From Escherichia phage RudolfBernhard_Bas96, in sequence record PQ850623.1: a stretch of 64,000 nt of DNA. The stretch is one strand, 5' to 3'. Both the position numbers and the translations under genes were made by a program. How positions within the stretch are numbered: position 1 is the first letter of the stretch; every line of letters starts with the position of its first letter. Positions 2,279-21,738 of the stretch are shown piece after piece. The notes beneath the pieces are model-generated. The model was not told the origin of the DNA. It saw only the letters and a program-made list of their open reading frames with translations, and did not search any database.

Positions 2279-2989
2279 ATGCAGAAATTATCGGAAGTAT
2301 ACCGTGGCTTGGCACTAAGTACCTTGAAGGGTACTGGTTCAGTTACGGATGACAGACTGGGTATTGAGCCAGATAGTAAGCCGGAGATATTAGCAGCTAT
2401 TAATGAAGGGCTGGTACGACTGCATAGTCGTTTTCCTCTTAAGACAAATAGCTGCATTGTGGAGATGAAGGAAGGGCGTACTGATTATCCTCTTCAATCC
2501 AAGTATGCTTACTCCAAATTTACTAAGCCTACTCTTGAGGTTCAGTATCCTTATATCATGGATGGGTTCATGAAGCCTTTCCAGGATGATGTTATTAAAA
2601 TCTTAAATGTGTTTGATAACTCTGGGAATAGACGTAGACTGAACGACGATTCAGATCCCCGAGCTATTTTCACCCCACGGCCTGATACTATTCAGTGTAT
2701 GCGACCTCGACACTTCGAGGCACTTAACGTAACGTATCAAGCTAAGCACCCAGTACTTACGGGTGATGAAGAACAGGAAGTTGATTTAGCTGATACGCTA
2801 ATGACGGCACTTCATAACTGGGTGGGTTATCGTTACCACACTGGTTTGAATACTCCTGAAGCTAACGCTAAAGCAGCAGAGTATCTGCAAACGTATGAAA
2901 GCATCTGTGGTGAGGTTGTTGATTACGACCTGGCTAATGGAAGTATTTCAATTACCGAAACTAAATTTGAACAACGAGGATGGCGATGA
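2279..2989 (+). CDS. Hypothetical virion/tail-associated protein (N4 gp67-like by position)
   Basis: 236-aa ORF with GAGGAA RBS; synteny between terminase and tailspike genes. Confidence 0.4.
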   Translation: MQKLSEVYRGLALSTLKGTGSVTDDRLGIEPDSKPEILAAINEGLVRLHSRFPLKTNSCIVEMKEGRTDYPLQSKYAYSKFTKPTLEVQYPYIMDGFMKPFQDDVIKILNVFDNSGNRRRLNDDSDPRAIFTPRPDTIQCMRPRHFEALNVTYQAKHPVLTGDEEQEVDLADTLMTALHNWVGYRYHTGLNTPEANAKAAEYLQTYESICGEVVDYDLANGSISITETKFEQRGWR

Positions 2990-5922
2990 ACGCACATACC
3001 CCCTTCGATGCAAAACAGGATTGGACCAATCCTTACTGCCAGAACAGTTCCAATGACCCAATGGTAGATGCACTACTAGGTAATGCTTATCATGTGGTTC
3101 GTACTGTCTACTGTAACTTGGGTAACCTGAAGCTTATCTACGACTTCCTGAACCAGTATGGGATGGTTCTTGGTGTACAGTCTGAAGCAGAACTTAAGGC
3201 GTTAACTACTGAAGCTAAGTATGCACGCATCTATGGTTTCTCCCGTGTAGGTGACCGTCAGGTTACAGACTACCTGTACGTGGAAGGTGATCGTACAGGC
3301 ATTCTACCCAACGACACCACTGCAACAGGCTCATGGATTACTGTTGCTACTTCTGGTGCAGGTGATGGCAGTGGTGGTATTTCCTCTGGGGGAGGTGCAT
3401 ACATTCCTTGGGTATACAGCAACGGTTCTGCTACTGGTGGGGAAACTTCCATTAACGTACCGGATGGGACAGTAGGTGTACCATTCATTATTGTTAATGG
3501 TGATATGCAGTATGTAGGACGAGGCTTTGAGTTTAACGTAGACGATCTGTCCGTAACTCTGGCTCAACCTCTGGAAGAAGGTGATGAAGTAGTATTCCTA
3601 CTGACTGGGGTTCCTGCTGTACCGGACAACCCTAATGTTAATGACTGGATTCAGATTAATTGGTTATATAACAATGGTGTTGCTGTAGGTGGTGAGCAGG
3701 TTATTGCTATTCCATACACTTTCCAGTCTATTCCAGCCGTGTATAAGAATGGGCTTCGTTTGTATAAAGGATTAACCACTGAATCATATACTGCTGACCC
3801 GGATAACCAGCGTATCCTTCTTACTGAGACACTGGCAACCAATGACCGATTGATTGTACAGCTTGGTGGTGAAGCACGGGTATTGGAAGCAGCAGACCAT
3901 ACTCTTCAGGAAGTTGCTCGTGCAGCTAACGTTAAGGATAGTGAGGTAATTCTTAGTACAGATAGTACCCAGTTCCTGAATGACAAGAGGGTTGTTTATT
4001 CTGTTAGTGAACAGAAGGCATATGGTTTGCCTGTATTACCAACAAATGTATACATTCAGTCCGTTAGTGACGGTAAGTTAACATACTCCCCCGGTAACAT
4101 TACGGTTGATTTACTTCCGTTACCAGAATCTGCTACTAGTTTAAAAAATAAATTTGCAGAAGAAAATGGTGCAGGGCTAGTTGGTACAACATCCGGCAGG
4201 ACCGTACAGGAAGAGTTTGACTACCGCAAAACTCAAGCGGAAAAAACAGAGATAAACATACTTGACTACCTTCCGGATAACGTGATCGCGGCGCTAAACG
4301 ATGTTAATGCATCAATGGCTCTAGGAAGCGTAAGGACATACATCGAACAGGCTTTGGCGGTAGCAACGAGCGAGAATATCGGTACTGGGGTTACTTTACG
4401 TTTCCCGGCTGGGTTCTTTTGGCTTGATTCTACTCTTAACCTTCCTAAAAGGACGCGTATTGTTGGAGTCTACCCAGAAACATACTTTATGGCACTCCCC
4501 AACTTTACCGGCACTAACGTAATTGCTGGCTCCACGGGACCAGCTATAGTCGCTATTGATAACTCAGGGCAAGACCCATTTTATATCGAAGGTTTTCAGA
4601 TAAACGCAGATGGTTCCCAGCCGAATGTGGTTGGGCTGCACATTGGCGGCTGCCGTAATTCCGTCGTCCGTCGGATATCTGTATCGGGGACCTTCGATGC
4701 TGCTGTTGTTATCCACCCTAAAAACGCAACATCTGGGGACGTGGAGAACCTGGAATTAAGCCACGTATGGACATTAGGTGGTGGGCTTGTGCTCAGGACT
4801 AATACAGATATCGACCGTGGAAATTTAACAGGTCTGTCATTCCGGGATTGTATGTTTTTCAGCACAATCGACAACAACCCTTCATGGGCGACGTCCGGTA
4901 ACCCATCCATCAGATTCTCATGTCATACTGACAGACAGATTTTTTCATGTACATTCGACCGCGTTGGTTGGGCTAGTCGTGCGACATACGCTATTTACTC
5001 AGAAAGTCTTGCAGGAAATAGCGAGGCAGATGTAAAAGGTTTCCGTGATATCCATTTCTCTGATTTCGCCGGAGAATCTCACAACGCTGACGGCTCGCTA
5101 ACATCAGACTGTACGTATGCCCTACTTACGAAGATGCGGAATAGCACATTTACTAACATCCAACGCTCTGGCGCCGTGACCCGTGGGGGTATCATTATGG
5201 ATGGGTGCGAATATGTGACCTTCAACTCAGTGTCTTTTGCAGATCCCAATATTAGCACTGGAACAACTGCCCCACGGTGCGTATATCAAAACTCTACTAA
5301 TAGATTTAACCGTTTTATCAATTGTGACTTAACAGATGCTACTGGTAGTATGTTTGATTTAGATGGTTGGACCATAGCTAACAGTGTGATGTACTACTTT
5401 AAGGGCCTGTTCTGGGATGACAGTGGGACTAGTATCTGGGAATGTGAACAAATGTCTAGCACTCCTGGCGTTATGTTCGCAAGAAGTACATTAAACCAAA
5501 ATAACGGGTCGGCCTTCCCTCAACAGTCTGGGGTTACAATGCTAACTTCAGGCGACGACCTTCAAGTTACTTTTGCAAGAGACACCACTACTAAAACCTT
5601 TACAATACCTATTACTACATCTTCTGGTGTATTTAATAACCATGACAGGGTGTATGTGGCATTTAGACATCAGTTCCTTAGCTATGGAACCAATACTGTA
5701 GTGAAAATAGGGATTGGAGGTAAGTATGTTACAATCAGTCCTCAATCGGGAACTGATTATTTTGCGGTGGTTAGTAGAGCACGTTCTTTGGCAACATCAT
5801 TTGATATCCAAGTCACTTATAGTGGCGCTTCGGAAGATTGCATTATTCTTATTAGAGATTTAATTGTATCAAATAAAATGCCGTGGCTCCCTAACTTCAC
5901 CAAAGTCTTACTTTGCGATTAA
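2986..5922 (+). CDS. Tailspike/tail fibre protein with N-terminal particle-binding region and C-terminal beta-helix-like region
   Basis: 978 aa; ATGA start/stop overlap with upstream gene at 2986-2989; Gly/Ser/Thr/Asn-rich C-terminal half with repeated N-x-G / S-x-G turns typical of right-handed beta-helix tailspikes. Confidence 0.5.
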   Translation: MNAHTPFDAKQDWTNPYCQNSSNDPMVDALLGNAYHVVRTVYCNLGNLKLIYDFLNQYGMVLGVQSEAELKALTTEAKYARIYGFSRVGDRQVTDYLYVEGDRTGILPNDTTATGSWITVATSGAGDGSGGISSGGGAYIPWVYSNGSATGGETSINVPDGTVGVPFIIVNGDMQYVGRGFEFNVDDLSVTLAQPLEEGDEVVFLLTGVPAVPDNPNVNDWIQINWLYNNGVAVGGEQVIAIPYTFQSIPAVYKNGLRLYKGLTTESYTADPDNQRILLTETLATNDRLIVQLGGEARVLEAADHTLQEVARAANVKDSEVILSTDSTQFLNDKRVVYSVSEQKAYGLPVLPTNVYIQSVSDGKLTYSPGNITVDLLPLPESATSLKNKFAEENGAGLVGTTSGRTVQEEFDYRKTQAEKTEINILDYLPDNVIAALNDVNASMALGSVRTYIEQALAVATSENIGTGVTLRFPAGFFWLDSTLNLPKRTRIVGVYPETYFMALPNFTGTNVIAGSTGPAIVAIDNSGQDPFYIEGFQINADGSQPNVVGLHIGGCRNSVVRRISVSGTFDAAVVIHPKNATSGDVENLELSHVWTLGGGLVLRTNTDIDRGNLTGLSFRDCMFFSTIDNNPSWATSGNPSIRFSCHTDRQIFSCTFDRVGWASRATYAIYSESLAGNSEADVKGFRDIHFSDFAGESHNADGSLTSDCTYALLTKMRNSTFTNIQRSGAVTRGGIIMDGCEYVTFNSVSFADPNISTGTTAPRCVYQNSTNRFNRFINCDLTDATGSMFDLDGWTIANSVMYYFKGLFWDDSGTSIWECEQMSSTPGVMFARSTLNQNNGSAFPQQSGVTMLTSGDDLQVTFARDTTTKTFTIPITTSSGVFNNHDRVYVAFRHQFLSYGTNTVVKIGIGGKYVTISPQSGTDYFAVVSRARSLATSFDIQVTYSGASEDCIILIRDLIVSNKMPWLPNFTKVLLCD

Positions 5923-6000
5923 AACTAAGGCCCAATTATTTAATAAAATGCCCCTCCAATCATGGAGGGGTGGTATTCCTAGAAAAACAAAGAGGTTTAT

Positions 6001-7929
6001 ATGAACGAAATGTTCTCACAAGGTGGTAAAGGTTCAACTGGAATCTTAACCAACAAACAAACAATAGCCCGTCACTTTGGAGTTAAACAATCAGAGGTTG
6101 TTTACTTCTCAGTGGGTGCTCTACTTACTGGTTACAAAGTCATTTATGACAAAGCGTCACAGAGGGCTTACTCATTACCTGCTGATATTGGTTCTGGGGT
6201 TACTGCTGTAAGCCTTAGTCCTGCCGGAGTATTGGTACACTCTGCTGGTAATGTGGACTTAGGTGCACTAGCTGTTGCTCGTGAAGAATATGTAACCTTA
6301 CCTGGCTCATTTGATACCGGTGTAACAGTTAATACTAAGAACGAACTGGTTGTTTTTACTGATGGTAAGTACCGTTGGGATGGTGCATTACCTAAAGAAG
6401 TACCTGCTGGTTCCACCCCCGCATCCACCGGTGGTGTGGTTACTGGCGCCTGGCGCCCTGTGGGGGACTTATCTCTACGGCCAAGCTTGGCAACGGCCAA
6501 TAGTGGGTATCTTGTTGATGACTCAAACATTATGGTGCAGACACCGGCCAGTGGTGTCGTGCGGACGCAGCACCTAAGAAATGCAGACTATATCAGCGTA
6601 AAAGACTTCGGCGCTATTGGTGATGGCGTTACTGATGATTCGGCCTCTTTCAGCGCTGCGATTTCGTCGCTATTAGCTCGGGGGGGTTCAATATACGTGC
6701 CTGCCGGTGTCTATAATGTCAAGAACGCTAATATAGTGGTTAACACGACTGACTTTCACGGGAATAGAATTGGATTTTATGGTGATGGACCGGCGATATC
6801 CGTACTACGTACGGCAACTGCGTCTTCAAGTGATGTGGTTATGTCGGTAACAGCAAACACAGAATCAGCAATTAACTCAGTTATTGCTGGAGTTTCATTC
6901 CATGATATTGGGTTCGAAATACTTAACAACACTGGGACTGTTTTCCGCCTTGTCAACACTGCTTACGCCAAATTTGACAACTGTTATTTCAGAGGTGGGA
7001 GACTTGGATTTGAAAGCGCTGGATCGCTGAGTAGTTCATTCATAAACTGCAAGTTTACAGAGGCGGTTAACTACGGATTTTACGCTCACAACGGCTTCAG
7101 CTATCCAAATCAACTATCATTTTTCCAGTGCGTATTCGCTAGCAACCAAGTGGCTGGAATTTATGCAATTGACCCAGGCGGCCTACGTATTTACGGAGGA
7201 AGCATAGAAGGAAATGGGTTATCAAACACGGACATGACATTTGGTGGTGGCATCGCCATCGATACAAAACCAGGCGCCGCCGGCGTAACAATCCCGTTAG
7301 TGGTATCAGGAACATACTTTGAGTTCAATAAAGGGCTGGCCGACATATATATAGCTCACACGAATAACTTTGCAAACATTTCTTTCTCAGTTGATAGTTG
7401 CAGTTTTGGGCAAGGTGGGGAATTCACTACAGTAGACCGCGTAAAGGTTATTCATAGTACAACGTCTTCGCTTAGGGGTACGGTTTCAAACTGCAACTTC
7501 CATGAGTTATCCGGCTTTGTGCCAACTGCCAGCAACAAGTATATTAACGTCAGTGGTAGTGGCGCTGGTTATCGATCAGTTGTAAACGTTAACAACTATT
7601 ACAACTCAGTAGCCTCTTCCCCAGCAGACCAAACAGTTCGTAACTCTGTTACCTCTGGATTCTCAGAGCCTCGCATAGAGAAGTATACCGCCGTTACTGG
7701 CTCCGGAATAGCAACCGCGACTATAAATTTCAATGCCTTTTCTGCGCCCCCGGCTGTTTCAGTTATTGTATCTGACGGGACACCCGACAGCGTTTTTTCA
7801 ACTAGATTGGTGGCTTTGAGCGCAACAAGCTGTACCATAGAGGTCCTCAAAACAACAACCGCTGGTGGCGCTTGGACTCCAGCTACTTCAGTTGCACTTC
7901 ACGTAACTGCGGTTGGCGCATCAAAATAA
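6001..7929 (+). CDS. Tailspike with pectate-lyase-superfamily (depolymerase-type) beta-helix domain
   Basis: Motif YISVKDFGAIGDGVTDDSASFSAAISSLLARGGSIYVPAGVYNV (~nt 6589-6720) resembles the N-terminal signature of pectate-lyase-fold tailspikes; AGAGG RBS before ATG 6001. Confidence 0.6.
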   Translation: MNEMFSQGGKGSTGILTNKQTIARHFGVKQSEVVYFSVGALLTGYKVIYDKASQRAYSLPADIGSGVTAVSLSPAGVLVHSAGNVDLGALAVAREEYVTLPGSFDTGVTVNTKNELVVFTDGKYRWDGALPKEVPAGSTPASTGGVVTGAWRPVGDLSLRPSLATANSGYLVDDSNIMVQTPASGVVRTQHLRNADYISVKDFGAIGDGVTDDSASFSAAISSLLARGGSIYVPAGVYNVKNANIVVNTTDFHGNRIGFYGDGPAISVLRTATASSSDVVMSVTANTESAINSVIAGVSFHDIGFEILNNTGTVFRLVNTAYAKFDNCYFRGGRLGFESAGSLSSSFINCKFTEAVNYGFYAHNGFSYPNQLSFFQCVFASNQVAGIYAIDPGGLRIYGGSIEGNGLSNTDMTFGGGIAIDTKPGAAGVTIPLVVSGTYFEFNKGLADIYIAHTNNFANISFSVDSCSFGQGGEFTTVDRVKVIHSTTSSLRGTVSNCNFHELSGFVPTASNKYINVSGSGAGYRSVVNVNNYYNSVASSPADQTVRNSVTSGFSEPRIEKYTAVTGSGIATATINFNAFSAPPAVSVIVSDGTPDSVFSTRLVALSATSCTIEVLKTTTAGGAWTPATSVALHVTAVGASK

Positions 7930-7930
7930 C

Positions 7931-7945
7931 AAAAAAAAAAAAAAA
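7931..7945. repeat. A15 homopolymer tract immediately after the tailspike stop codon
   Basis: 15 consecutive A residues read directly at 7931-7945. Confidence 0.9.
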
Positions 7946-8001
7946 CATCAGCTTTTTGAAGCTGGAGTGATGTAGTACACATTGCTGGCACTATTGATAA
8001 G

Positions 8002-8028
8002 CACCCCTCTTCGGAGGGGTTATTTTTA
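8002..8028 (+). terminator. Rho-independent terminator (hairpin CCCCTC-TTCG-GAGGGG followed by T-run)
   Basis: Perfect 6-bp GC stem at 8004-8019 followed by TTATTTTTAT. Confidence 0.6.
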
Positions 8029-8054
8029 TCATTAGAAAAAGTATTTAATCTTTG

Positions 8055-8083
8055 AAGCCCATTAGGAGAGGGGCTTTTTTGTT
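8055..8083 (+). terminator. Second tandem rho-independent terminator
   Basis: GC-rich hairpin (AGCCC...GGGGCT) followed by TTTTTT at 8075-8080. Confidence 0.5.
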
Positions 8084-8152
8084 GTACCCCAAACTCACCT
8101 TTATGTAGACTGTTTCAGTCAATCACGACTTAACTAACCTGAGAAAGTCCCT

Positions 8153-8485
8153 ATGGGAAATGAACCAGATAACGTAACTCTAGCCAGACTCGAAGAGAGA
8201 CTGAGAAACATTTTCGAAAACCAAACTCGTGAAGCGAGGGAAAGGGAGAAAATGGAAGAGTCTATTAAAAAGCTAAGTGAGTCTATGGGCGACCTTAGTA
8301 CCCGACTTAAACGGGTAGAGGAAAGCATCACTAAGTCTGAACCTACCATCGAAGAGTTCATCACCATTAAACATAAAGTTGCTGGTGCTGGAATTTTTGG
8401 TAAGTGGGTATGGGCTGGAGCAGGTGCAATTATTGGTGTATTGGCTGCTGCAAGACGGGAGATATTCGCATGGTTCGCAAGCTAA
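8153..8485 (+). CDS. Holin-like small membrane protein
   Basis: 110 aa; charged/coiled N-terminal half, hydrophobic C-terminal segment GIFGKWVWAGAGAIIGVLAAA; sits immediately upstream of the endolysin. Confidence 0.4.
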   Translation: MGNEPDNVTLARLEERLRNIFENQTREAREREKMEESIKKLSESMGDLSTRLKRVEESITKSEPTIEEFITIKHKVAGAGIFGKWVWAGAGAIIGVLAAARREIFAWFAS

Positions 8486-8730
8486 AAAGAAAGATAGGGC
8501 TAGTTCCTAACTGGAAGAAGTCCTGGAAGTGGGCATCTGTTCAGATTAGTGCATTTGGATTAATTCTATTTTCTGCTGTAGATATTATCCAACCAATGCT
8601 AACAGGACTACCACGTCACATCCTTGAAGATATTCCACATGGTTCCAGTATTACAATCGCACTGTTTGCTTTAAACATTGTAGGCAGACTAATACGATTC
8701 CATCCAAAGGAAGATTCTCATGAAAGCTAA
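8470..8730 (+). CDS. Small two-TM membrane protein (holin/antiholin candidate)
   Basis: Basic N-terminus then hydrophobic segments ISAFGLILFSAV and SSITIALFALNIVG; start placed at ATG 8470 with GGGAGA RBS; 16-nt overlap with the upstream gene. Confidence 0.35.
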   Translation: MVRKLKRKIGLVPNWKKSWKWASVQISAFGLILFSAVDIIQPMLTGLPRHILEDIPHGSSITIALFALNIVGRLIRFHPKEDSHES

Positions 8731-9355
8731 ACAGAAACTTGCTGCAAAAGGTGGTGCAGTGGGAGGAGTTGTCGCTGCTATTCTGGGGGCAGTGTTCTAT
8801 ATGGAAGGAGGGTACGTAAACAATCCTCACGACCCAGGTGGGGAAACTAATCATGGTATTACTCAATCAGTAGCCAAGTCTCATAAAGAAGTTCTGGCTA
8901 CTGAGTATGGTTGGGATGGTTCCATGAAGGGTTTATCAAAAGAGATGGCTGCTGAGATATACATTGATGACTACGTACTTAAGCCTAACTTCGTAGCCTT
9001 CGCTGATATATCTCCTGCTGTAACACACAAACTGGTTGATGCTGGTGTTAACACTGGTGTAACCAGACCGGCTAAATGGTTGCAGCAATCCCTTAATGAA
9101 ATGTCCCGTAATGGCAAAGACTACCCTAAAGTACAAGTTGATGGTAAAGTCGGTGCAGGTACTGTTAATGCATATAAAGCGTTACAGAAAAAACGAGGCA
9201 AAGTTGCAGCATGTCAGGTAATGATTAAGTTGCTTGATGCTAAACAACTGAACCACTACACCTCATTGAACATGCCAGACTTTACGTATGGTTGGGTAGC
9301 TAACCGAATCGGCAATGTGCCACTGGAGGCATGTAATGAAGATGCTAATCTCTAA
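8720..9355 (+). CDS. Endolysin, GH108-type N-acetylmuramidase (N4 gp61-like) with hydrophobic N-terminal SAR-like segment
   Basis: Motif EGGYVNNPHDPGGETNHGIT (~nt 8802-8862) matches the GH108 signature; N-terminal GGAVGGVVAAILGAVFY is Gly/Ala-rich and hydrophobic; AGGAAG RBS. Confidence 0.75.
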   Translation: MKAKQKLAAKGGAVGGVVAAILGAVFYMEGGYVNNPHDPGGETNHGITQSVAKSHKEVLATEYGWDGSMKGLSKEMAAEIYIDDYVLKPNFVAFADISPAVTHKLVDAGVNTGVTRPAKWLQQSLNEMSRNGKDYPKVQVDGKVGAGTVNAYKALQKKRGKVAACQVMIKLLDAKQLNHYTSLNMPDFTYGWVANRIGNVPLEACNEDANL

Positions 9356-9836
9356 AGGTTGGCCTTATCTTCTGGTGGTGGTCCTCGGGGCCACCATTTA
9401 CTTTTGGGGTAATTCCAATGGACAGTCTACTGTTCAAAAGAAGTGGGATGCCCAAAAGGTTGAAGACCTGAAGGCAACACAAAAACTACAGGACAAATAC
9501 AATGCTCTCCAAAGAAACCATAGTTATGAAGTCGGGTTACTCACTTCCCGGTTGCAGACGGCTGAGAGTAATTACGCAAGCGAGCTTGCTCGCGTTAGCA
9601 GTGATTACGACAGCCGGATGCAACAGTCTGAAAGACGAGCATCGGTATATAAACGTCAAGCCGAAGCCGGAACCCTTGAGTGCAGAAGTCTTGCAAGCCA
9701 TGCAGCCAGACTCGACAACAGTCTTGAAGAAGGCAGACGTTTGGTTGAAGAACTCCGGGCAACTGTTAGACTCCGTGACAACCAACTAATTGGGTTGGGT
9801 AAGCAAATTCAGGCTGACCGTAAACTTTTTGAATAG
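9336..9836 (+). CDS. i-spanin (Rz-like): N-terminal TM anchor plus coiled-coil periplasmic domain
   Basis: TM segment [17 protein letters not shown] followed by a charged helical region; start at ATG 9336 with GGAGG RBS at 9325-9329. Confidence 0.6.
9526..9789 (+). CDS. o-spanin (Rz1-like outer-membrane lipoprotein) embedded in another frame inside the i-spanin gene
   Basis: Signal peptide plus lipobox [12 protein letters not shown] (Cys codon at 9619-9621); entirely nested within 9336-9836. Confidence 0.6.
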   Translation: MKSGYSLPGCRRLRVITQASLLALAVITTAGCNSLKDEHRYINVKPKPEPLSAEVLQAMQPDSTTVLKKADVWLKNSGQLLDSVTTN

Positions 9837-9844
9837 GATTAACT

Positions 9845-12115
9845 ATGGAACACCAAGACACTTTTAAGCCTTTACCAGACCCGGCTCAATCAGAGAAGCT
9901 AACGGACTGGAAGAAGGAACCAAGTATCCAATTACTGAAGGGTGATTTGGAATCAGCTAAACCTGCTCACGATGCAATTATGGCCCAGATTCGTGAGTGG
10001 AATGACCTAATGGAAGTCAAAGGTAAAGCTAAACCCCCAAAGGTTAAAGGTCGTTCACAAGTCCAACCTAGACTGGTTCGCCGTCAGGCAGAGTGGCGAT
10101 ATGCTCCATTGTCCGAGCCGTTCCTCTCATCTAATAAACTCTTTAAAGTAACTCCAGTTACTTTTGAAGATGAGTTAGCTGCACGTCAGAACGAATTAGT
10201 TCTTAACTACCAATTCCGTACACAGCTTAATAAAGTAAAACTAGTGGATGATTACGTACACAGTGTCGTAGATGACGGTACTGGTATTGCTCGTATTGGT
10301 TGGGAACGTAAGACTGTTAAGATTAAAACAGAAACACCAGTCTTCCAGTTGTATCCAATTGAGAATCAGGAACAGGCAGATGTTCTTCAACAGGCTTTAC
10401 AGCTCCAGGCTGAGAATCCTCGTGAGTATGATGAAACTATGCCGGAAGATATTAAAGAAGCTGTTAACTACTTTAATGAAACTGGAGAAGCTACCTATGC
10501 AATCCAGACAGGGGTTACTGAGGTAGAAGTAGAGAAGGCACTGGTTAACAGACCTACTGTTGAAATGCTTAACCCCAATAACGTAGTTATTGACCCAAGC
10601 TGTAATGGCGATTTGGAAAAGGCTCTGTACGCAGTTATCTCGTTTGAGACATGCAAAGCAGACCTCATGAAGAATAAAGACCGTTATCACAACTTAGATA
10701 AGATTGACTGGGAAAGTTCTAGTCCTATAACTGACCCAGACCATGAGAGTAAAACCCCTAGTGACTTCCAGTTTAAGGATGCACTTCGTAAGAAGGTTGT
10801 TGCTTACGAGTACTGGGGATTTTACGACATCAATGATGATGGTTCTCTGGAACCAATTGTTGCTACCTGGATTGGTTCTACTCTTATCCGTATGGAGAAG
10901 AACCCATTTCCAGATGGTAAATTACCCTTAGTAGTTGTTCCTTACATGCCTCGTAAACGCGAACTCTTTGGTGAAGCTGACGCTGAACTGCTGGGGGATA
11001 ACCAAGCAATTCTTGGTGCAACTATGCGTGGGATGATTGACCTGTTAGGTCGAAGTGCAAATGGACAACGTGGTTATCCTAAAGGGATGTTGGATACACT
11101 GAACCGACGTCGATATGACGATGGGCAAGACTATGAATATAACCCAATGCAGGGTAATCCTAGTCAGGCCATTATGGAGCATAAGTTCCCTGAGTTACCC
11201 CAGTCGGCAATAGTAATGACTCAGATGCAAAACCAGGAAGCTGAATCACTAACTGGTGTTAAAGCATTCTCAGGTGGTGTAACTGGTTCAGCTTATGGAG
11301 ATGTGGCTGCTGGTATTCGTGGTGCACTTGATGCAGCATCCAAACGTGAGATGGCAATCCTTCGTCGATTAGCTAAGGGTATGGCAGACATTGGTACTAA
11401 GATTTGTGCAATGAATGCTGTGTTCTTATCTGAGAAAGAAGTAGTACGTATTACTAACGAGCAGTATGTAGAGATTAACCGTGAAGACCTTAAAGGTAAC
11501 TTCGACATTGAGGTTGATATTAATACTGCTGAAATTGATAACCAGAAATCCCAGGACTTGAGCTTCATGGTTCAAACATTGGGTAATACGGTTGACCAAA
11601 CTATTACGTTATCTCTTGTAGCTAAGATTGCAGAACTTAAACGTATGCCTGACCTGGCTCATGAGTTACGTACTTGGCAACCACAACCGGACCCTATGGA
11701 AGAACAGCTTAAGCAACTGGCAATTCAGAAAGCACAGCTTGAGAATGAAGAGTTACAAAGCAAGATTGCACTCAATATGGCTAAGGCTAAAGAGGCTGCT
11801 TCTGCTGGTGACCTTAAAGACCTGGATTATCTGGAACAGGAATCTGGTACTAAACATGCCCGTGATATGGAAAAACAAAAAGCACAATCTCAAGGAAACC
11901 AGAACCTTCAAATAACTAAGGCATTGACAACACCTATTAAAGAAGGGGAAACTACCCCCAACATATCTGCAGCTGTTGGATATAATACTTTGACTAACGG
12001 GAACTCTATACCAGAACGTGATTTAGCTGCTCAGCAAGACCCGGCTTATTCACTTAGTTCCCAATACTATGACCCTCGCCAAGACCCAGCATCGGCTCTT
12101 GGCATGAACCTGTAA
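9845..12115 (+). CDS. Portal protein (N4 gp59-like)
   Basis: 756 aa, size and position between lysis cassette and scaffold/capsid genes; no single diagnostic motif asserted. Confidence 0.7.
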
Positions 12116-21677: not shown

Positions 21678-21738
21678 AACTGGCTTACTGTAGAGTAAGT
21701 TACCTATATACGATATAAGTTTGAACAGGAAACATGCT

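Follow-up and report, generated by a model that had tools for sequence, protein, structure and literature searches.

Introduction

A lysis cassette of the kind described here is already known: it has been annotated in near relatives, and its counterpart in phage N4 has been dissected by experiment. Within the N4 module, which is arranged gp63-gp62-gp61-gp60/gp60a, gp63 was identified as a pinholin, expression of which alone kills >99% of cells; it complements S21 and not S105, and deletion of gp63 delays lysis (Awuah et al., bioRxiv 10.1101/2025.11.12.688109). The same work described gp62 as a late-triggering holin whose deletion leaves lysis by the cassette unchanged, gp61 as a membrane-associated SAR endolysin that complements together with the pinholin, and gp60/gp60a as a pair able to complement lambda RzRz1 (Awuah et al., bioRxiv 10.1101/2025.11.12.688109). 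Muramidase activity of N4 gp61 on peptidoglycan is known from the literature, and the N4 cassette was also studied by Stojkovic and Rothman-Denes (2007), as cited in Awuah et al. N4 shows lysis inhibition, whereas phages of the G7C type reportedly do not.

The record of phage G7C (NC_015933), with the gene order gp63-gp62-gp61-gp60/gp60', already annotates gp62 as holin, gp61 as endolysin, gp60 as Rz and the embedded gp60' as Rz1. Kongari et al. (2018) place G7C, PhAPEC5 and PhAPEC7 among the N4 families of embedded spanins. Two further systems offer parallels in design. S21/R21 of phage 21 share the logic of a pinholin that triggers the release of a membrane-tethered endolysin, and in lambda Rz/Rz1 the i-spanin gene likewise contains a lipoprotein gene in its +1 frame. 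The lysis proteins of phage 21 and lambda nevertheless bear no sequence relationship to the cassette reported below: R21 is a T4-lysozyme-type enzyme whereas the present endolysin belongs to GH108, and S21 has two TMDs whereas proteins of the gp63 type combine a long coiled coil in the cytoplasm with a single TMD at the C-terminus.

Results

The window analysed here is a stretch of 64,000 nucleotides from Escherichia phage RudolfBernhard_Bas96 (PQ850623.1). Its source is a Gamaleyavirus, that is, a G7C-like coliphage of the N4 family, with a nucleotide identity to vB_EcoP_G7C of 96.5% across window positions 8004–10100; the window also contains an ORF of 3605 aa, the size of a vRNAP, which is typical of N4-like phages. 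An ORF scan showed five closely packed genes on the + strand at 8153–9836, in the order gp63-like, gp62-like, gp61-like, gp60-like i-spanin and embedded o-spanin, and all of the features that the original prediction had ascribed to a lysis cassette in this interval were found there. The short overlaps between the genes, together with their SD motifs, fit coupled translation. Membrane and lipoprotein signals were judged by hydropathy, composition and regex, plus orthology. The genes, their domains, the membrane and lipoprotein signals, the orthology and the conservation of both overlapping frames were observed directly, and the 1.7-kb region very probably represents the usual set of five host-lysis genes of a G7C-like coliphage of the N4 family.

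G7C has the genes in the same order, with the same overlaps and sizes, protein identities of 96–98% and a mature o-spanin that is 100% identical. The comparison with N4 gp61 and its neighbours that had been proposed at the outset yielded five orthologues in identical order, with the same embedded architecture, at identities of 54–80% (54–67% for the proteins and 80% for the mature o-spanin); the SAR segment, the EGGY motif, the LIN segment and TMD of gp63 and a mature o-spanin of 56 aa are all shared. A scan of IMG/VR with the endolysin alignment recovered mainly GH108 endolysins that are unrelated; of 83 loci, 74 matched gp61 only, and the cassette comparison in IMG/VR used six loci (L004, L005, L006, L008, L009 and L011). 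A tblastn search of deposited phages was more informative.

The cassette is flanked upstream by a tailspike gene (6001–7929; Tail_spike_N and a pectate-lyase-like domain) and downstream by the portal gene (9845–12115; SU10_portal, E 8e-151). The lysis region of G7C likewise lies between tailspike genes and the portal gene, although its upstream tailspike genes differ from that of the window, and similarity to G7C starts at 8004, within the first of two terminator-like hairpins on the + strand downstream of the tailspike gene. This first hairpin, ACCCCTC-TTCG-GAGGGGT (8003–8020), is followed by a T-run to 8029 and was detected by both the consensus scan and RNA folding. The second, GAAGCCC...GGGCTTT (8054–8077, with a T-run to 8083), was seen upon folding of 7930–8152; it lies 70 nt upstream of the cassette, and its loop exceeds the length that the consensus scan allows. 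The cassette had been placed inside the structural operon between tailspike and portal genes. Gene order and strand agree with that placement, which, given the two terminator-like hairpins in between, need not imply a single transcript shared with the tailspike gene. A sigma-70 promoter scan revealed none on the + strand in the vicinity of the cassette, a result that is uninformative because the late promoters of N4 are weak and depend on an activator.

The gp61-like protein (211 aa; 8720–9355, + strand) was assigned as a GH108 N-acetylmuramidase from Pfam matches, PDB relatives and orthology to N4 gp61, to which it is 67% identical. The GH108 family (PF05838) scored 72.3 bits over residues 24–113 against a cutoff of 21.2, and a C-terminal PG_binding_3 domain scored 33.7 bits over residues 117–196 (cutoff 24.6); in NCBIfam nothing in this region exceeded the curated cutoffs, the best being 'holin-associated N-acetylmuramidase' at 59.6 bits versus 240. 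Its predicted GH108-type fold is settled by matches to solved structures, namely 6v3z (E 2e-27) and 6v40. Residues E29 to G46, which align to PDB 6v3z, do not vary between the window, G7C and N4 except at N35 and H37, and contain the conserved motifs E29-G30-G31-Y32 and D38-P39-G40-G41-E42-T43-N44-H45-G46. The codon of the putative catalytic Glu29 is at 8804–8806. The muramidase signature noticed in the original prediction is thus confirmed by the Pfam score and the EGGY motif.

Directly before EGGY, residues 11–28 (8750–8803, GGAVGGVVAAILGAVFYM) form an uncharged hydrophobic segment of the SAR type that is 50% Gly+Ala and follows the sequence MKAKQKLAAK, with four Lys among the first 10 residues; the N-terminus is 3 residues longer than that of N4 gp61. 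Gly+Ala accounts for 47–58% of the SAR segment versus 14–24% of the spanin and gp62 TMDs. The SAR domains of P1 Lyz and phage 21 R, with 41–53% Gly+Ala, are similar in this respect. On an unweighted Hessa-scale sum the segment was not distinguished from ordinary TMDs, and the description 'weakly hydrophobic' is drawn from composition alone. The N4 pinholin gp63 has its orthologue encoded 235 nt upstream of the gp61-like gene. In N4 gp61, a Gly to Glu change at G12 results in rapid lysis (Awuah et al., bioRxiv 10.1101/2025.11.12.688109), and this residue is conserved as G15 in the window.

It is quite improbable that this N-terminus is instead a cleavable Sec signal, producing a soluble muramidase, or a permanent anchor. 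The segment did not come out as less hydrophobic than the i-spanin TMD on the Hessa-scale sum and contains small residues (VAA, LGA), as such readings would have it, yet neither a polar c-region nor an AXA motif follows the hydrophobic core, and EGGY begins one residue past the segment, so that cleavage or permanent anchoring would be awkward for catalysis. The likeness in composition to known SAR domains argues in the same direction, as do the membrane association of the N4 orthologue, its function together with a pinholin and the effect of Gly to Glu changes. The possible SAR N-terminus of the original prediction thus stands on a Lys-flanked, Gly/Ala-rich segment and on N4 gp61 orthology, and by analogy with N4 the gp61-like protein would be a SAR endolysin, uncleaved, Sec-exported and released by depolarisation.

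The first gene of the cassette (8153–8485, + strand) encodes a 110-aa protein that matches phrog_5211 (E 6e-49) and is orthologous to gp63 of N4 and G7C, with identities of 61% and 96%, respectively. It displays an N-terminal coiled coil that is presumably cytoplasmic, a LIN segment at residues ~62–75 and a Gly/Ala-rich C-terminal TMD at ~76–100. Conservation is unevenly distributed along the protein: the C-terminal half is almost invariant among relatives, residues 62–110 differ from N4 at just 5 positions, the part comprising TMD and LIN segment has ~90% identity to its N4 counterpart, and the positions of LIN mutations (S62, T65, I70, T71 and I72) are kept. The N-terminal coiled-coil half, on the other hand, is a highly variable and exchangeable module, with a mosaic boundary within the gene at ~8303–8315. 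The window protein is without Met13 and Met17 of N4 gp63, the proposed alternative start, Met17 being replaced by Leu. The LIN segment is intact although G7C is reportedly without lysis inhibition; regulation may differ from that in N4.

The second gene (8470–8730, + strand) overlaps the first by 16 nt and specifies an 86-aa protein with 54% identity to N4 gp62, preceded by a GGAG located 8 nt upstream of its ATG at 8470. It matched Pfam DUF7940 (54.2 bits, cutoff 27) and phrog_1356 'holin' (E 3e-30), and hydropathy revealed two TMDs at about residues 21–40 and 57–75. The frame is open from 8404, and in-frame starts at GTG 8404 or ATG 8410 would add 20–22 residues. As a conserved product this longer form was rejected: a stop closes the extension in relative L006, and the extension overlies the conserved gp63 TMD in the other frame and has a W/C/Y-rich, off-frame-like composition. 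It may be a minor isoform.

Both small membrane proteins had been proposed as holin candidates, and the proposal holds for each, the 110-aa protein as an orthologue of the N4 pinholin gp63 and the 86-aa protein as a two-TMD orthologue of the late holin gp62. A different division of labour, in which the gp62-like protein is the main holin and the gp63-like protein a regulator (an antiholin or endolysin activator) and not the hole-forming trigger, would agree with the G7C and PHROG annotations, which label gp62 'holin' and gp63 'hypothetical', and with an older thesis, cited by Awuah et al., in which gp63 activates gp61. A long cytoplasmic coiled coil followed by a single C-terminal TMD is also atypical of holins, and the roles of gp62 and gp63 may be split differently in G7C, which is without lysis inhibition. 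We regard this assignment as unlikely, since N4 gp63 alone is lethal and complements S21 while deletion of gp62 is without effect, and the gp63 proteins of N4 and the window are nearly the same across TMD and LIN segment. We infer from this orthology that the gp63-like protein is a pinholin and the trigger of lysis.

The fourth gene (9336–9836, + strand, within an open frame of 9315–9836) overlaps the gp61-like gene by 20 nt and encodes a 166-aa i-spanin, the equivalent of Rz, which matched phrog_6197 'Rz-like spanin' (E 1e-76) and is 54.5% identical to N4 gp60. The protein has an N-terminal TMD with a signal for type II topology, here MKMLISK followed by 18 uncharged residues, and then a helical periplasmic domain. 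Its single Cys, predicted to be periplasmic and a candidate for intermolecular disulfide bonding, is encoded at 9681–9683 (TLECRSL) and is conserved in N4 (TTQCLNL). The start is most likely ATG 9336, because it alone has a well-spaced GGAGG, 6 nt upstream. For ATG 9342, the equivalent of the start annotated in G7C, the GGAGG is 12 nt away, and ATG 9315 has no SD motif before it; neither was retained.

Wholly inside the i-spanin gene, in its +1 frame, lies the gene of a 95-aa o-spanin (9502–9789, + strand), the equivalent of gp60a and Rz1. Together the two genes make up a spanin pair of the embedded 'N4 family' (Kongari et al., 2018). The reading of an embedded lipoprotein gene in the original prediction, with its lipobox Cys at 9619–9621, is supported. 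Counted from ATG 9502, which has an AGGA 8 nt upstream, the signal peptide is unusually long at 39 aa and consists of a basic RRLR n-region, a 17-residue h-region and the lipobox T-A-G-C, in which TGC at 9619–9621 is the Cys codon. ATG 9526, which lacks an SD motif and is replaced by ACG in relative L004, was dismissed as a start. The lipobox is non-canonical in having Thr at −3, where the strict consensus is L/V/I, and deviating yet functional lipoboxes are reported in the spanin literature. Compared with that of N4, the signal peptide is longer and unrelated in sequence, with TAGC as opposed to IVGC. The G7C annotation carries the embedded ORF further in the 5' direction, an extension that a stop at 9469–9471 closes in the window. 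The predicted mature protein of 56 aa has Asn at +2 (no Asp), in keeping with sorting to the outer membrane, a Pro-rich KPKPEP stretch and no Cys besides the putatively lipid-modified one. The mature part is also 100% identical to that of PhAPEC5.

An overlapping frame of this size might be open by chance, in which case the outer membrane would be disrupted without a two-component spanin; many deposited records do leave the embedded ORF unannotated. Nulls were generated by resampling codons with the gp60 protein fixed (5000 trials) and by codon permutation. An alternative frame stayed open over 288 nt or more in 5–10% of the randomisations, whereas a lipoprotein-like ORF arose in 0.2% of the 5000 resamplings and in 0% of the codon permutations. 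In deposited phages, tblastn showed the embedded frame to be conserved in 158 phage records from about a dozen host genera, and in the IMG/VR relatives the frame, the Cys position and the mature motifs are kept even where the i-spanins are only 30–47% identical. The overlap encoding the mature o-spanin shares 84.5% of its nucleotides with N4, versus 50% for the signal-peptide part, and substitutions in the overlap are even over codon positions (9/8/9), a signature of dual coding. On this sequence evidence, the embedded frame is more than chance and is under apparent dual-coding constraint; with a functional homologue in N4, the chance-frame reading of 9502–9789 is effectively refuted, and a two-component spanin is the reading retained here.

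Discussion

Taken by analogy with N4 experiments and with knowledge of the family, which guide the roles, topology and order of events suggested here, the cassette would be a late-expressed multigene unit working like gp63-gp62-gp61-gp60/gp60a of N4. The GH108 muramidase would be exported by Sec and tethered in an inactive form in the inner membrane by its Gly/Ala-rich SAR helix, which would keep the putative catalytic Glu29 at the surface of the membrane. Meanwhile the gp63-like protein would accumulate in the inner membrane through its C-terminal, glycine-zipper-like helix and, at a set time, trigger as a pinholin and collapse the proton-motive force, upon which the muramidase would be released, become active and degrade the peptidoglycan. 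The two-TMD gp62-like holin may act as an accessory hole former that triggers later. After loss of the cell wall, the i-spanin of the inner membrane and the embedded o-spanin, an outer-membrane lipoprotein, would constitute a periplasm-spanning complex that disrupts or fuses the outer membrane. These functional assignments derive from N4 orthologues at 54–67% identity and largely from one preprint that used heterologous expression.

Beyond correct annotation, the significance of the module is modest: a complete set of pinholin/holin, SAR endolysin and embedded spanins in a G7C-like phage. Homologues of gp63 are mostly labelled 'hypothetical', and even 'tape measure', in deposited records, and a label of pinholin-type holin is warranted; the embedded o-spanin, which is frequently unannotated, ought to be called. 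The allele differences between G7C and N4 offer a convenient starting point for comparisons in studies of lysis inhibition. It is conceivable, though doubtful, that the G7C-type cassette is a natural variant of the N4 cassette with 'no lysis inhibition'. If the variable half of gp63, or its dual start, is what receives the LIN signal, a comparison of gp63 alleles would map the choice of N4-like phages between rapid lysis and a delayed burst of ~3000 virions.

Gene content and genomic context

The 1,684 bases at 8153–9836 of the window hold five plus-strand genes, bearing out the original prediction of a 1.7-kb lysis gene cluster. Named after their counterparts in coliphage N4, these are the gp63-like ORF (8153–8485, 110 aa), the gp62-like ORF (8470–8730, 86 aa, overlapping the gp63-like gene by 16 nt), the gp61-like ORF (8720–9355, 211 aa, overlapping the gp62-like gene by 11 nt), the open frame of the gp60-like i-spanin (9315–9836; PHROG "Rz-like spanin" match, E 1e-76) and, in the +1 frame within the i-spanin gene, the gp60a-like o-spanin ORF (9502–9789). 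The region from 8004 on shares 96.5% identity with Escherichia phage vB_EcoP_G7C (G7C) and 90–97% with many other Gamaleyavirus genomes; an ORF of 3,605 aa at 21721–32538 is as large as the virion-encapsidated RNA polymerase of N4-type phages and is consistent with an N4-family identity. The cassette proteins are 96–98% identical to those of G7C (100% for the mature o-spanin), and comparison with N4 gp61 and its neighbors revealed orthologs at 54–67% identity (gp63, 61%; gp62, 54%; gp61, 67%; gp60, 54.5%), with 80% for mature gp60a. An NCBIfam search returned nothing above threshold, and most GH108 loci found in the IMG/VR scan were not N4-like.

The G7C RefSeq annotation lists gp63 as hypothetical, gp62 as holin, gp61 as endolysin, gp60 as Rz-like spanin and gp60' as embedded Rz/Rz1 spanin, and the record of phage Mimir124 carries a manual note on the embedded spanin. 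Deposited relatives are annotated inconsistently here: their gp63 homolog goes by "hypothetical" in some records and by "tail length tape-measure protein" in others, the label "RIIA/RIIB lysis inhibitor" is given to the region in one Klebsiella phage record, and the embedded o-spanin is usually uncalled.

The predicted position between tailspike and portal genes was confirmed by the flanking domains, namely Tail_spike_N with a pectate-lyase-like domain upstream (6001–7929) and SU10_portal (E 8e-151) downstream (9845–12115). The stretch from the tailspike stop to the cassette contains two terminator-like hairpins with T-runs, at 8003–8020 and 8054–8077, and the portal ATG is only 8 nt past the i-spanin stop. 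Therefore, the proposed location "inside the structural operon" holds in that the cassette belongs to the late structural gene block, but a transcript shared with the tailspike genes is not required. A sigma-70 scan found no plus-strand promoter near the cassette.

Directly after the tailspike stop there is a run of 15 A (7933–7947), followed by a small hairpin (7949–7964) and then the two terminator-like hairpins. The two upstream tailspike genes (980 and 642 aa; 2980–7929) are unlike those of G7C. Positions 4168–5933, the distal two-thirds of the first, are 98.8% identical to a tail fiber gene of TanjaMuster_Bas81 (PQ850630), an unrelated 47.6-kb coliphage, which points to a receptor-binding module exchanged recently across phage families. 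A similarity search with 2980–8152 gave no record covering even 35%, and the matches listed over 6001–7929 were partial and only ~81% identical.

Candidate holins and endolysin

Both small membrane proteins that had been predicted were recognizable. The first ~70 residues of the gp63-like protein, the pinholin candidate, are charged and resemble a coiled coil (weak Pfam matches to coiled-coil families), and its C-terminal end consists of the Gly/Ala-rich hydrophobic VAGAGIFGKWVWAGAGAIIGVLAAA followed by RREIFAWFAS. The transmembrane segment (TMD) is nearly identical to that of N4 gp63, and S62, T65, I70, T71, and I72, all the positions hit by N4 rapid-lysis mutations, are kept. What chiefly sets it apart from N4 gp63 is the variable coiled coil at the N-terminus and the lack of Met13/Met17, the proposed alternative start in N4; both positions are Leu in the window, G7C, Mimir124, and the IMG/VR relative L004. 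Sequence varies strongly over the N-terminal ~55 residues (overall identity is 68–71% for Mimir124 and L004), and the half comprising the lysis-inhibition (LIN) segment (residues ~62–75) and the TMD is invariant across the relatives compared. DNA similarity to many Gamaleyavirus relatives begins only at ~8303–8315, inside this gene, so a mosaic boundary lies mid-pinholin gene. Lysis inhibition is reportedly absent in G7C despite the intact LIN segment of its pinholin.

In the gp62-like protein a basic N-terminus precedes two hydropathy peaks, at residues ~21–40 and ~57–75. In-frame upstream starts (GTG 8404, ATG 8410) would add an extension (8404–8469) similar to that of the 109-aa form suggested as an alternative for N4 gp62. 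The extension stays open in phages of the N4 and G7C types and is closed in the distant relative L006; because it also runs, in a different frame, across the conserved gp63 TMD, we rejected the longer form as a conserved product in favor of the 86-aa protein.

The gp61-like protein agrees with the predicted GH108 muramidase bearing a Gly/Ala-rich hydrophobic N-terminus, with Pfam matches to GH108 (72.3 bits; cutoff 21.2) and PG_binding_3 (33.7 bits; cutoff 24.6) and to solved GH108-type structures (6v3z, E 2e-27). Its N-terminus, MKAKQKLAAK-GGAVGGVVAAILGAVFYM-EGGY, comprises four lysines, an 18-residue uncharged segment of 50% Gly+Ala and, abutting it, the invariant EGGY. This putative signal-anchor-release (SAR) segment lacks acidic residues and keeps the glycine (G15) equivalent to G12 of N4 gp61; a crude insertion-energy scale did not separate it from ordinary TMDs.

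The nested spanin genes

The i-spanin has one hydrophobic segment near its N-terminus, a long helical remainder and a Cys conserved with N4 gp60. ATG 9336 (MKMLISKG...), with GGAGG 6 nt upstream, is the best-placed start and parallels that of N4 gp60 (MKTSLIK); ATG 9315 was rejected for want of a Shine–Dalgarno (SD) motif, and ATG 9342, annotated in G7C, is disfavored by its 12-nt SD spacing.

The embedded o-spanin lipoprotein was found as predicted, with the lipobox Cys codon at exactly 9619–9621. The ORF encodes 40 residues ending at this Cys and 55 more, giving a mature protein of 56 residues, as in N4. Judged by its AGGA at 8-nt spacing, ATG 9502 is the best-placed start, resulting in an unusually long signal peptide of 39 residues. 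ATG 9526 was rejected (no SD motif; ACG in L004), and the longer form annotated in G7C is ruled out in the window by a stop at 9469–9471. The lipobox is TAGC, as opposed to IVGC in N4, and its −3 Thr falls outside the strict consensus [LVI][ASTVI][GAS]C; deviating spanin lipoboxes are documented.

The embedded ORF is more than a chance occurrence. When the i-spanin protein was held and synonymous codons were resampled, an alternative-frame ORF with a start, basic n-region, hydrophobic h-region, lipobox Cys and mature part of 25–120 aa arose in 0.2% of 5,000 trials, and codon permutation never produced one (0%). In a tblastn search, the product of the embedded frame matched 158 phage records, whose hosts include Escherichia, Klebsiella, Erwinia, Achromobacter, Pseudomonas, Stenotrophomonas, Burkholderia, and Xanthomonas. 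An o-spanin is annotated at this frame in several of them, and the PhAPEC5 product is 100% identical. IMG/VR relatives with i-spanins of only 30–47% identity retain in this frame the signal peptide, one of the lipoboxes LAAC, LTGC, TVGC, or LIGC, and the motif INV(K/R)P...PL...QP(D/N)ST...WL(K/E)NS. Nucleotide identity to N4 is 84.5% over the mature o-spanin overlap and 50% over the signal-peptide part, and the 26 differences are spread 9/8/9 over the three codon positions, as expected if both frames are constrained, which represents a dual-coding signature.

Relationship to the N4 lysis mechanism

Every component of the cassette has already been described, in the G7C annotation, in the N4 experiments and in the families of Kongari et al. 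(2018; PMC6139136), where N4, vB_EcoP_G7C, PhAPEC5, PhAPEC7, Bp4, and EC1-UPM share a single family of embedded i-spanins and a single family of o-spanins; sequences nearly identical to those in the window have been deposited. The cassette is real but already known, and therefore of low interest.

The cloned N4 gp60–63 cassette lyses E. coli in ~25 min (Awuah et al., bioRxiv 10.1101/2025.11.12.688109). In the same study, gp63 was lethal alone and could replace the pinholin of phage 21, though not lambda S105, in complementation, which makes it the pinholin and master timer; gp62 was a late-triggering, non-essential large-hole holin; gp61 was a membrane-associated N-acetylmuramidase that functions with a pinholin and yields rapid-lysis alleles when Glu is put into its N-terminal segment, hence a SAR endolysin; and gp60/gp60a fully complemented lambda RzRz1. 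Since the decisive N4 features are kept in the window, we assign this mechanism to its cassette, which very probably uses it; gene content, signals and conservation were observed directly, and topology and timing we infer. The muramidase would be exported via Sec and tethered, depolarization triggered by the pinholin would release it, and the spanins would then disrupt the outer membrane, with gp62 serving as the accessory holin.
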